Source: Escherichia phage PECP20. From it: a DNA stretch of 64,000 bases. Below the pieces are notes generated by a model. The model did no database searches, was not told the origin of the DNA, and saw only the letters and a list, made by a program, of their open reading frames with translations. Made by a program: the position numbers and the translations under genes. The number at the start of each line of letters is the position of its first letter. Positions within the stretch are counted from its first letter, which is position 1. The DNA lies in the sequence record OQ873415.1; one strand, 5' to 3'. Below, piece after piece: positions 56,269-59,045 of this stretch.

Positions 56269-56804
56269 TGCATTCCAATCACAAAAAATTGAGGACGAGC
56301 ATTACCGCCGATGCAATATTTGCTTTTGCAACAGTGTTGGACTGTTTTAATATGTACATTGTAAATCTTATCCATATCAGGAGCTTTAATAGGCTCGTCA
56401 ATTATATACAGAATACGAGAAAGCGTTAATCCACGGAATTTAGAACCTTCATTGCCAATAAAACTACGAACAGAATCAGTAAATAAACGGAATCGAATAT
56501 CGTCGCTAGAATAACGAGAAAATTCTTTTTTAATGTTGCCAGCAGAAATTTTAGAATAAGCTGAAGTATTAGAAAGAACAATAACTGTTCCACCATCATA
56601 CAGCCAATTAACAGCAAAATTAGTTACTGCGGTCGATTTACCTGATTGTCGGCCGCCGTCTAAACGAAGTGTACAGTACTGCTTGAGTACGTCTTCAAAC
56701 GGTGGGATATAACCGTTCTTACAAATTTCTTCTACTCTAGCATCAGAATGGTGTGTAAAAGCATTCATCAGGGATAGATAAGGTCCAGTTAAAAATGTTC
56801 TCAT
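56265..56804 (-). CDS. P-loop NTPase (179 aa)
   Basis: Walker A GGRQSGKST and Walker B YIIDEP. Confidence 0.65.
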   Translation of the reverse strand: MRTFLTGPYLSLMNAFTHHSDARVEEICKNGYIPPFEDVLKQYCTLRLDGGRQSGKSTAVTNFAVNWLYDGGTVIVLSNTSAYSKISAGNIKKEFSRYSSDDIRFRLFTDSVRSFIGNEGSKFRGLTLSRILYIIDEPIKAPDMDKIYNVHIKTVQHCCKSKYCIGGNARPQFFVIGMQ

Positions 56805-56976
56805 TTAGTTTCTCTTAAGGTTGGGGCCATTCCATGGCACATGTTAGGTCCTTCGACTCGCTATGTAAACCCATTACCGCATTGCGCTCGACCTTATTAC
56901 AGGTTGGAAAAGGTACATCACTCAGAGGACTCGACGTTCATGAGGAGAGGTTGCGTTTCCCTTTATTAGGCAAGAA

Positions 56977-57306
56977 TTATACTCTAGGCTTTTGAGCTTG
57001 TTTGGTATTGGATTCCCATGTGGCTTTGGTAATTTTGTTAGCGGCATAACCAAAGGCATTAGATAGAACACCTTTAGAGTTGAATACATCCAATCCAATA
57101 AGTACACCGGCTGTGTTAAATTTAGGAGCAAAGTACGCATTAGTTTTAGAAAGAGCTTTTTTCAATTCAGGGTCTTGAACCAAGTCATCAAAAACGCCTT
57201 TACTATTTACTTTATATGTTACTTTGGGATTTTTACTTTCTTCGATAGCAGCTTTCTGTTCCGCAGATAATGTAACTTCAGTGATAAACTCTTGATATGT
57301 TTTCAT
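56977..57306 (-). CDS. capsid internal protein with capsid targeting sequence
   Basis: ATG at 57306 gives N-terminus MKTYQEFITE, the T4 internal-protein targeting consensus; Lys/Ala-rich body. Confidence 0.7.
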   Translation of the reverse strand: MKTYQEFITEVTLSAEQKAAIEESKNPKVTYKVNSKGVFDDLVQDPELKKALSKTNAYFAPKFNTAGVLIGLDVFNSKGVLSNAFGYAANKITKATWESNTKQAQKPRV

Positions 57307-57313
57307 TTTTTCC

Positions 57314-57727
57314 TTAGTAAATTGATTTACCATAGTATTTGTACCAAGTCGGACGTTGAGCAATTTTTTCATCTAAGCGTGCTTGACTTATCGCAATGGA
57401 CACTTCGGACGGGACATAATTATTACGAAATTCGGCAGGAATGTCGGAAATATCCTGGACTGTCGTGTCCTTGATTTTGAAACCACGTTTCAAACATTCA
57501 GCGATTAGCTCGATTTGTCGTAAACGTAAAAATTCAAGTTTGTCGTAAAAGAATGTTACGTGACCTGTGCCTAAGATAAATGTTGGAGAGATTTTAAAAT
57601 CCTTTACACGTTTACCGTTTTGAACATGTTTACGGACTGCACCAAATACGCGTGGTAATTCACGATACTCAGCCATAAGATGTTGGTCGGACAGTTCAGA
57701 AACAAGTGTTAAATTGATACGAGTCAT
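57314..57727 (-). CDS. denV: endonuclease V (pyrimidine dimer DNA glycosylase)
   Basis: Near-identical to T4 DenV as recalled ([12 protein letters not shown]...); start at ATG 57727. Confidence 0.95.
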
Positions 57728-57785
57728 AATTTCCTCCAAGTAGTTGATGAATGTATAGTATCAAAACCCTTGGAGGAAGTAAACA

Positions 57786-58067
57786 CTATTTTTCTGAAGC
57801 GCCTGAAATATATTTTTCAAGACGTTGTTTCATCAGCGAGCCGTTCTTAGCGATTTCTTCTGGTTTATCGCACATACGCAACAAGGCTTCAAGCTTAGCG
57901 ATATCGCTGGTACGTTCAAATTTGCGAGTATCTATCTTACTAGCAAGTTCAGAAATACGTGCTAATAGACTTTCAGCTTCAACCAAAGCTGCACCTAGCT
58001 TAGTTGCAAATGTGTCAGTAGCTTCGTTAAGAATAGATTCTGATAAAAATTCACTATATGTTTTCAT
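57786..58067 (-). CDS. capsid internal protein with capsid targeting sequence
   Basis: ATG at 58067 gives [10 protein letters not shown]; ATGA overlap with lysozyme stop. Confidence 0.7.
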
Positions 58068-58552
58068 ATATACGCTTTCCAAGTTCCTGTTTTAAATGTT
58101 GAGATTACGCGTTTCGCGCGATTAGGTGTCTGACGATACCATTTAGATTGAGCTAGATTTACTGCCGCTTCATCCCAACGTTTCTGTTTAAGCATACGAA
58201 GAGAATTAGTAAAACCGGCGACTCCTGCTACACCCATTTGGAAGACCATATTGACCAATGCACACCGACGAACTGCATCTAAAGAATCATATACCGGTTT
58301 AAGTTTAGCATTACCCAAGATTCCGCGAACGGCTTTATCGACGTCTTCATTAAATAGCTTTTCAGCCTCATCAAGGGTAATTGTACCGTTGCATTTACGA
58401 CCGATCATTCTGTCAAGTTCAGCTTTAGCTACGGCTAAAGACTGGTTCTTTGTTACCAAGTGGCCTATGCCAATCGTCCAAAAGCCTTCAGTGTCTTTGT
58501 ATAAAGTCAGTCTAAGACCTTCGTCATTACGAAGCATTTCAAATATATTCAT
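58064..58552 (-). CDS. e: lysozyme (endolysin, T4 e type)
   Basis: [32 protein letters not shown] matches T4 lysozyme as recalled; start at ATG 58552. Confidence 0.95.
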
Positions 58553-58556
58553 AATA

Positions 58557-58576
58557 CCTCCCACGTTTATAGGAGG
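58557..58576 (-). promoter_or_regulatory. SD-sequestering hairpin upstream of lysozyme gene
   Basis: Minus RNA CCUCC-UAUAAACGU-GGGAGG, where GGGAGG is the SD 5 nt before ATG; TAATAAATA just upstream. Confidence 0.5.
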
Positions 58577-58586
58577 TATTTATTAC

Positions 58587-59045
58587 TTATAGGATGGTAG
58601 TGAGCACCTTATATAATGATTTGCCCATTACATATTCCCATTGAGAAGGTTTAATTAAAGCGAATGCATCAAATTCAGGAATCTGTCGTCCGTCTGGGAA
58701 TGTATGATAGGAATTACAAACACTGTTTCTGAATTGCTCGTGCTCTACAGGGATGGTATATAGGAACAGATGAATATTCTTATTATCTGAGTAATGATGT
58801 TCACCTAGGTCTTTCAGGAAGACAGGGTCATATTGTGTAAACCCAGTTTCTTCTTCGCATTCACGAATAGCGGCTTCAATAGGAGATTCGCCAGGTTCGA
58901 CATGGTCTTTAGGAATATCCCACCGATGAGCTAAAGAACCTTTAGGACGAGAACCAGTTACACGACCCATGAATAACTCTTTATCTTTTGTCATGAAGAT
59001 AATACCGGCTGATAGTTCTTTCACTTTATTTTTCTTACTCATCAT
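58587..59045 (-). CDS. nudE: Nudix hydrolase
   Basis: 152 aa; Nudix box GESPIEAAIRECEEETGF; position downstream of e as T4 nudE. Confidence 0.8.
   Translation of the reverse strand: MMSKKNKVKELSAGIIFMTKDKELFMGRVTGSRPKGSLAHRWDIPKDHVEPGESPIEAAIRECEEETGFTQYDPVFLKDLGEHHYSDNKNIHLFLYTIPVEHEQFRNSVCNSYHTFPDGRQIPEFDAFALIKPSQWEYVMGKSLYKVLTTIL

Follow-up and report, generated by a model that had tools for sequence, protein, structure and literature searches.

In the 64,000-nucleotide (nt) stretch of Escherichia phage PECP20 that we analysed (OQ873415.1; hereafter the window), the gene denV, which encodes a pyrimidine-dimer DNA glycosylase (endonuclease V), is embedded between two small genes, Ip93 (= RB69ORF127c) and Ip109 (= RB69ORF123c), the predicted products of which both begin with a leader of the T4 internal-protein (Ip) type. 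We consider it likely that Ip93 and Ip109 are internal-protein genes of Mosigvirus, the products of which would be packaged into the phage head, processed and injected, each blocking a variant of a restriction enzyme; judged by sequence, both have every feature by which the T-even Ip family is recognised. All genes of this locus lie on the minus strand. An earlier note on this DNA had placed two open reading frames (ORFs) between positions 56977 and 58067, which are exactly the end of the Ip109 stop codon and the start of Ip93 on that strand. As a genome feature, the locus has an arrangement that is ordinary for Mosigvirus and known from numerous deposited genomes; what stands out more in this region is a structured RNA that directly follows Ip109.

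Leaders and mature regions of Ip93 and Ip109

Ip93 extends from its ATG at 58067 to a stop codon that ends at 57786 and encodes 93 amino acids, with the capsid targeting sequence in codons 1-10 (58067-58038); denV follows at 57727-57314 (Pfam Pyr_excise, PF03013, 4.9e-14; PHROG 1183, 1.4e-61), and Ip109, which encodes 109 amino acids, extends from its ATG at 57306 to a stop codon that ends at 56977. The ATG of Ip93 overlaps the stop codon of the lysozyme gene e (ATGA), and Ip109 starts 8 nt past the denV stop codon behind an AAGGA Shine-Dalgarno sequence; because of this overlap and this ribosome-binding site, respectively, we take the ATG codons of the MKTY leaders to be the true starts. Longer ORFs obtained mechanically (from TTG at 58082 and from ATG at 57372) were rejected, both of them extending into the upstream genes.

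The leader of Ip109 is MKTYQEFITE, followed by VTLS, and residues 8-10 of the Ip93 leader are LSE, followed by SILNE. When all six reading frames of the window are considered, matches to MKTY.EF[LI].E are limited to two, the starts of Ip93 and Ip109, compared to 2.6e-6 occurrences expected by chance from the base composition and none in 100 shuffled sequences. Mutagenesis by Mullaney and Black, as summarised in PMC9026906, showed that capsid targeting requires residues 4 and 7 and that processing requires residues 8 and 10. The targeting determinants Y4 and F7 are present in both leaders, and residues 8-10 conform to the [LI]-x-E motif of the prohead protease (gp21) in both (ITE in Ip109 and LSE in Ip93), so that the T4-type targeting leader with a head-protease motif that the earlier note had attributed to both proteins is indeed there, with Y4, F7, I/L8 and E10 all retained. 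Ip93 has a second candidate cleavage site, LNE at residues 13-15, which aligns with ITE (to residue 15) of T2 Ip5. Leaders of the IpI type were not found in the leader scan of the window; an IpI homologue of RB69 is encoded at a separate place (PMC13326640). It appears extremely improbable that chance or an annotation error produced the ORFs or their leaders: their small size is the only point in favour of this explanation, which is contradicted by the excess of leaders over the chance expectation and by the ribosome-binding sites of both genes within the classical Ip locus, and is refuted by the conservation of both as ORFs in tens to hundreds of phages.

Beyond the leaders, the two proteins resemble neither each other nor the T4 internal proteins of this locus. 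BLASTP alignments of Ip93 and Ip109 with T4 IpII, with T4 IpIII and with each other are limited to the first 11-15 residues, which argues that the mature parts differ, as the earlier note had proposed, and are unrelated; no similarity to the mature regions of T4 IpII or IpIII was detected for either protein, and since the similarity ends by residue 15, Ip93 and Ip109 are not orthologues of these T4 proteins. The known polymorphism of internal-protein loci fits this divergence, in line with the hypervariability to which the earlier note had appealed. Searches of Pfam and NCBIfam returned nothing for Ip93 or Ip109, and nothing for T4 IpI-III either; a PDB sequence search returned nothing meaningful for the two proteins, and a word-indexed homologue search with both returned near-identical proteins only. 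What Ip93 and Ip109 share with T4 IpII and IpIII is the locus, a 10-residue leader of the same type (MKTYQEFIAE in T4) and the same [IL]xE cleavage motif; they are likewise small and dispensable-looking, and mature Ip109 is similarly basic. The positions of the genes differ, however: T4 has ipII and ipIII together between e and denV, each behind its own non-coding upstream region, whereas in the window there is one gene on each side of denV, with Ip93 overlapping the e stop codon and Ip109 8 nt behind denV.

By homology, Ip93 is an internal-protein gene of the Ip5 family. Its product matches PHROG 3499 ('internal head protein') at 2.1e-46 and, with 48% identity to T2 Ip5 over 84 amino acids (E 6e-23), falls within the Ip5 family by similarity, to which Ip109 shows no match; the identical protein of APCEc01 carries the RefSeq name 'internal head protein'. 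The mature region of Ip93 is homologous to that of Ip5 from T2, PP01, AR1 and RB9, the genes for which are located at the ipI locus, downstream of 57B, whereas Ip93 is located at the denV-e locus. The leaders differ accordingly, T2 Ip5 having the long IpI-type leader MKTFKEFATKTTITE and Ip93 the short IpII/III-type leader; one mature module goes with whichever leader its locus has. The predicted mature form of Ip93 is 9.2 kDa, with an isoelectric point (pI) of 6.3.

Ip109, as far as its sequence relationships indicate, is an internal-protein candidate in a narrow Mosigvirus/Dhakavirus family that is not named as such by records or PHROGs. It matches PHROG 3966 ('unknown function') at 3.4e-31, along with weak, leader-driven matches to Ip PHROGs, and is called hypothetical in most phage records. 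Ip109 occurs in 90 phage records: in 76 (Mosigvirus) the identity is 95-99%, in 1 it is 60-80% and in 13 it is less than 60%; the low-identity matches listed (~35%) are Dhakavirus forms, and one of these phages, WG01, also has its copy downstream of denV. In 1.84 billion representative proteins, an exhaustive HMMER search with mature Ip109 recovered only two clusters of this family; its other matches, low-complexity ones to long repeat proteins (MBG, collagen-like), were discarded. The predicted mature form (99 amino acids, 10.8 kDa, pI 9.6) is basic like T4 IpII and IpIII. AlphaFold models Ip109 as a mixed alpha/beta fold (predicted local distance difference test, pLDDT, 78.5; predicted template-modelling score, pTM, 0.65), which is matched by an independent model of the family from BFVD (template-modelling score, TM, 0.90). 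Beyond the family itself, BFVD fold matches are weak and point to uncharacterised proteins of other T4-like phages, namely Klebsiella PKO111 (E 1.6e-3, TM 0.53), Erwinia Cronus, Proteus Pm5461 and Aeromonas phiAS5; some proteins of the locus that are unrelated in sequence may share a fold with Ip109. The fold searches of PDB and BFVD found no structural match of the Ip109 model to any known inhibitor.

Gene order and cassette turnover around denV

The region 56700-58700 (2 kb) matches 840 phage records, the best of which is Escherichia phage LH01 (99.2%), a Mosigvirus of the RB69 group. In RB69, sequenced in 2003, the order is e, ORF127c (= Ip93), denV, ORF125c, ORF124c, ORF123c (= Ip109) and vs.8; the order seen in the window thus recurs in RB69, and it does so in at least 109 near-identical phage records. 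Ip93 and Ip109 are 95-100% identical to RB69ORF127c, RB69ORF123c and the orthologues of these in Mosigvirus, which are arranged likewise with respect to e, denV and vs.8; in RB69 and APCEc01, however, denV and ORF123c are separated by two further leader-bearing genes that are missing from the window and LH01. The order e-Ip-denV-Ip is the standard Mosigvirus layout and is already in public records. The ORF coordinates bear out the earlier note in placing one Ip gene downstream of denV and the other between denV and e, as does the T4 order e-ipIII-ipII-denV-vs.8 in placing T4 ipII and ipIII together between denV and e. Its description of a 'non-T4 arrangement' holds insofar as the order is unlike that of T4; any implication that this is unusual among relatives does not.

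To place this layout among other phages, we took 80 denV loci from IMG/VR and, in the 36 that are T4-like, searched up to 1.5 kb from denV for leader-bearing ORFs. Such ORFs were found at 30 of the 36 loci; Ip93 and Ip109, which flank denV next to e, lie in one of the two polymorphic Ip loci of T-even phages (denV-e, the other being 57B-tRNA). The commonest state was leader-bearing ORFs on both sides of denV (16 of 36), followed by ORFs upstream only, the T4 state (8 of 36), and downstream only (6 of 36); the remaining 6 of 36, which lack leader-bearing ORFs, are from jumbo phages of ~350 kb. Since both sides are occupied at 16 of the 36 loci, T4 represents only one variant: denV is normally embedded in an array of Ip cassettes, and an arrangement other than that of T4 is the rule, not the exception.

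The mature regions in these arrays are highly diverse. When the leader-bearing ORFs of the 36 loci were pooled with those of the window, APCEc01, RB69, T4, WG01 and the T2 ipI locus and clustered after removal of the first 10 residues, they fell into at least 16 BLAST families. The IpIII-like and Ip7-like families occur on either side of denV: IpIII-like proteins, encoded upstream of denV in T4, are encoded on its downstream side in some Mosigviruses, and genes for Ip7-like proteins are found both at the denV locus and at the ipI locus of T2. IpIII-like genes (192 amino acids) are present in other Mosigviruses (contigs L007 and L008) and not in the window.

Comparison with APCEc01 and RB69 shows where the layouts diverge. 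The window lacks 665 base pairs (bp) that comprise the two additional leader-bearing genes, which encode products of 84-86 (MKMYQEFIIE) and 90-104 (MKTYKEFIAE) amino acids. The two BLASTN segments on either side of this difference overlap by 40 bp at the joint (57314-57275, minus strand; 1287-1326 in minus-strand coordinates of the window), which contains the denV stop codon, the ribosome-binding site and leader codons and matches both ends of the 665-bp segment, that is, the beginnings of both the first cassette gene and Ip109. Because a repeat of the ribosome-binding site and leader bounds the difference between the window and RB69/APCEc01, leader-coding DNA serves as the crossover site for gain and loss of cassettes, and the junction is a clear example of this at base level. 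The window and LH01 have lost two cassette genes, or have never gained them, via the leader repeat; the LH01 junction is slightly different and lies inside the ribosome-binding site. In other close relatives, the region is longer by about +98, +322, +518 or +665 bp, so that the gene content after denV varies among close relatives, and Av-05-like contigs have an IpIII-like gene there. The shuffling of Ip cassettes through leader-coding DNA accounts for a gene order unlike that of T4. For the ipI locus, crossover in leader-coding DNA was reportedly proposed by Repoila et al. in 1994.

Expression and proposed function

Lysozyme e (58552-58064, minus strand; Pfam Phage_lysozyme, 6.3e-14, in agreement with PHROGs) is directly upstream of Ip93 and downstream of nudE (59045-58587, minus strand), and is preceded by a hairpin (58580-58553, minus strand; AATACCTCC-TATAAACGTG-GGAGGTATT) that contains the e Shine-Dalgarno sequence, with a degenerate, late-promoter-like TATAAA in the loop; the classical early/late translational-control arrangement of T4 gene e appears to be conserved in the window. 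Ip93 would be read from the e transcript and translationally coupled to e via the ATGA overlap, lysozyme e probably supplying both transcription and translational coupling, and Ip93 probably shares the late translation and timing of e. Between Ip93 and denV, a second hairpin (57778-57731, minus strand; TTCCTCCAAG-28 nt-CTTGGAGGAA, 10 bp) covers the denV Shine-Dalgarno sequence and has a fold energy of -19.8 kcal/mol (z = -2.84); T4 denV has the same hairpin design with a different, compensating stem (CTCCTGTAG/CTACAGGAG). The 5' arm and loop of this hairpin are overlapped by GTTTAC-N17-TACTAT, which we infer to be an early-type promoter, and this configuration suggests that denV is translated only from transcripts that start inside the hairpin, not from read-through. 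Ip109, located behind denV, seems to have a Shine-Dalgarno sequence but not a promoter of its own; TGGTATAAT precedes the second cassette gene of RB69 and APCEc01, in a segment that is absent in the window. A scan for sigma-70 promoters and terminators performed no better than on shuffled sequences.

By extension from T4, the leader would dock Ip93 and Ip109 on the scaffolding core of the prohead, a gp21-type protease would remove it after E10 (in Ip93 perhaps also after E15), and the mature proteins would remain in the head to be injected with the DNA. On the strength of this parallel, it is very probable that both proteins are packaged and processed. A specific anti-restriction function is a more tentative proposal, in which we place slightly less than even confidence. 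T4 Ip1, Ip2 and Ip3 each inhibit one distinct GmrSD-type type IV enzyme, without cross-protection, and the other genes of the two Ip loci were proposed by the authors to act likewise (PMC12373910); IPIII is required on ECOR17 (PMC9391042). Mosigvirus DNA bears 5-arabinosyl-dC, and BrxU, an enzyme of the GmrSD family, cuts such DNA (PMC13390438). By analogy with T4 Ip1-3, each mature protein would most likely block one variant of a modification-dependent GmrSD-type enzyme and, because the T4 proteins block GmrSD and Mosigvirus DNA is arabinosylated, the target would most likely be type IV enzymes that recognise arabinosylated DNA. The proposed action resembles that of T4 IpI*, the GmrSD inhibitor, namely that a small protein is targeted by its leader, processed and injected and then blocks a type IV restriction enzyme, although IpI* has no sequence similarity to Ip93 or Ip109. 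Host defences encounter injected internal proteins before any other phage product and, because Mosigvirus DNA is arabinosylated and not glucosylated, the internal proteins of this group are natural candidate inhibitors of modification-recognising enzymes; the unnamed Ip109 family is open to a direct test.

Several observations weigh against the packaging and the proposed function of Ip93 and Ip109. The anti-restriction target is drawn purely by analogy with T4 Ip1-3, from which the anti-defence role named in the earlier note is likewise extrapolated, and mature Ip93 and Ip109 do not resemble, in sequence, any protein whose function or structure is known; Foldseek found no PDB match for the Ip109 model (best E 0.42), and the model of Ip93, an all-helical single-sequence prediction, is of low confidence (pLDDT 71.6). 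Ip93, in contrast to the basic internal proteins of the classical type, is near-neutral. The late promoter TATAAATA was not found near Ip93 or Ip109, within several kb, and virion proteomics of Ip93, Ip109 or their Mosigvirus homologues was not found in the searched literature. Finally, the RB69 copy of Ip109 (RB69ORF123c; 3001-3330 of L004) starts with MKTYQEFIAAV, with Ala instead of Glu at residue 10, so that the E10 site, which is intact in Ip109 of the window, LH01 and APCEc01, is gone in the type phage RB69; therefore, cleavage, and perhaps function, is not kept in every phage.

The loss of E10 in RB69 could indicate that the leaders are relics, such that one or both products are no longer packaged or processed and either act in the infected cell or are being lost. 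The position of Ip109 behind the early gene denV, without a promoter of its own, and the missing late promoter consensus are compatible with this explanation, which we nevertheless consider quite improbable, given that all four critical residues are kept in both leaders of the window, that Ip109 is 95-98% conserved over 76 phage records, and that Ip93 is coupled to the late-translated lysozyme gene; furthermore, aspartate at residue 10 stops processing but not targeting (PMC9026906). It is also unlikely, if somewhat less so, that Ip93 and Ip109 are bulk internal proteins that are packaged only to neutralise charge or condense DNA inside the head, without a specific host target. Such a role would agree with the pI of mature Ip109, which is like those of T4 IpII and IpIII, and with the description of T4 internal proteins as abundant head components (PMC7697877); it does not agree with the near-neutral charge of Ip93 or with the specific GmrSD targets of all three tested T4 internal proteins (PMC12373910), and the turnover of at least 16 unrelated mature families at one locus fits better with an arms race. 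Packaging, processing and injection of both proteins, with inhibition of restriction enzymes, remains the reading that we prefer.

A structured RNA downstream of Ip109

Between Ip109 and a gene for a vs.8-like P-loop protein (56804-56265, minus strand) is a gene-free stretch of 172 nt (56976-56805, minus strand), which is a conserved block with 77-100% nucleotide identity in 938 phage records from several Tevenvirinae genera, always directly after an Ip gene or denV. Within conserved blocks of this stretch there are 1-nt insertions or deletions (indels), and a coding reading of the element was ruled out for this reason. The block contains an element of ~105 nt (56959-56855, minus strand), directly 3' of Ip109, that we regard with high confidence as a real structured RNA. 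It consists of five helices and an invariant core, ACCUGUAAUAAGGUCGAGC...GCGGUAA. A covariance model of the element (R1) has a single match in the window, at 56959-56855 (116.8 bits, E 2.5e-29).

The structure was derived by hand and tested on an alignment of 18 sequences and on 52 distinct sequences. In the 18-sequence alignment, 95.7% of the cells are paired, compared to 25-38% when the partners are slid by 1-3 columns, and seven pairs show compensatory changes. In the alignment of 52 sequences, which was fitted to the covariance model and is for that reason biased towards the structure, 93.8% of the cells are paired and 18 of the 22 pairs show compensatory changes. One helix has lost a whole base pair through matched deletions in three lineages. 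As G·U cells exceed A·C cells (35 vs. 8), the folded strand is the strand of the genes. The single-sequence fold is not unusually stable (z = +1.59), and therefore the evidence for the structure is comparative only.

T4-type copies, which had been left out of the seed, were found by the model at ~50 bits. The copy in T4 is located at ~64847-64933 (3348-3434 of contig L002) and overlaps the annotated first ~22 codons of vs.8. In the window, RB69 and other phages, vs.8 starts at a downstream ATG (MRTFL...), and the element has frame-breaking 1-nt indels; because of these downstream starts and indels in relatives, the 40-amino-acid N-terminal extension of vs.8 that is annotated in T4 is probably wrong. 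Each contig has one copy or two in tandem: in two T4-like contigs, a second, shorter copy (55-56 bits) follows the first after ~30 nt (9108-9190 of L119 and 5082-5163 of L113). Copies at 30-42 bits were found in other phages, where several adjoin tRNA genes on the tRNA strand and where, by our reading of the sequences, some appear to be followed by a terminator. BLAST identified copies in rV5-like coliphages, the N4-like Klebsiella phage Pylas, and Campylobacter and Pseudomonas phages; among phages that are not T4-like, tRNA operons are a frequent location of the copies, and most copies in the GenBank records listed are in unannotated gaps. The core pattern was not found in 185,579 bacterial and archaeal genomes, the element matches no Rfam 15 family at E <= 1, and no description of it was found in the searched literature. 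Identification as a tRNA or transfer-messenger RNA (tmRNA) was rejected, with no such call for the element, and so was identification as T4 rnaC or rnaD.

The RNA may be a stable trans-acting RNA, an element of an untranslated region or an aptamer, and the denV/Ip locus may be more than an array of protein cassettes. A broader combination, in which the element represents an undescribed class of stable RNA that is exchanged among virulent phages, possibly with a role in counter-defence or translation, and Ip93 and Ip109 represent new inhibitors directed specifically at enzymes that attack arabinosylated DNA, is in our judgement somewhat less likely than not. On the plus strand, two ORFs run antisense across the RNA, at 56841-56969 (42 amino acids) and 56834-56995 (53 amino acids), the shorter of which is annotated in LH01 as the hypothetical protein lh_124; because relatives carry indels, both ORFs are probably spurious.

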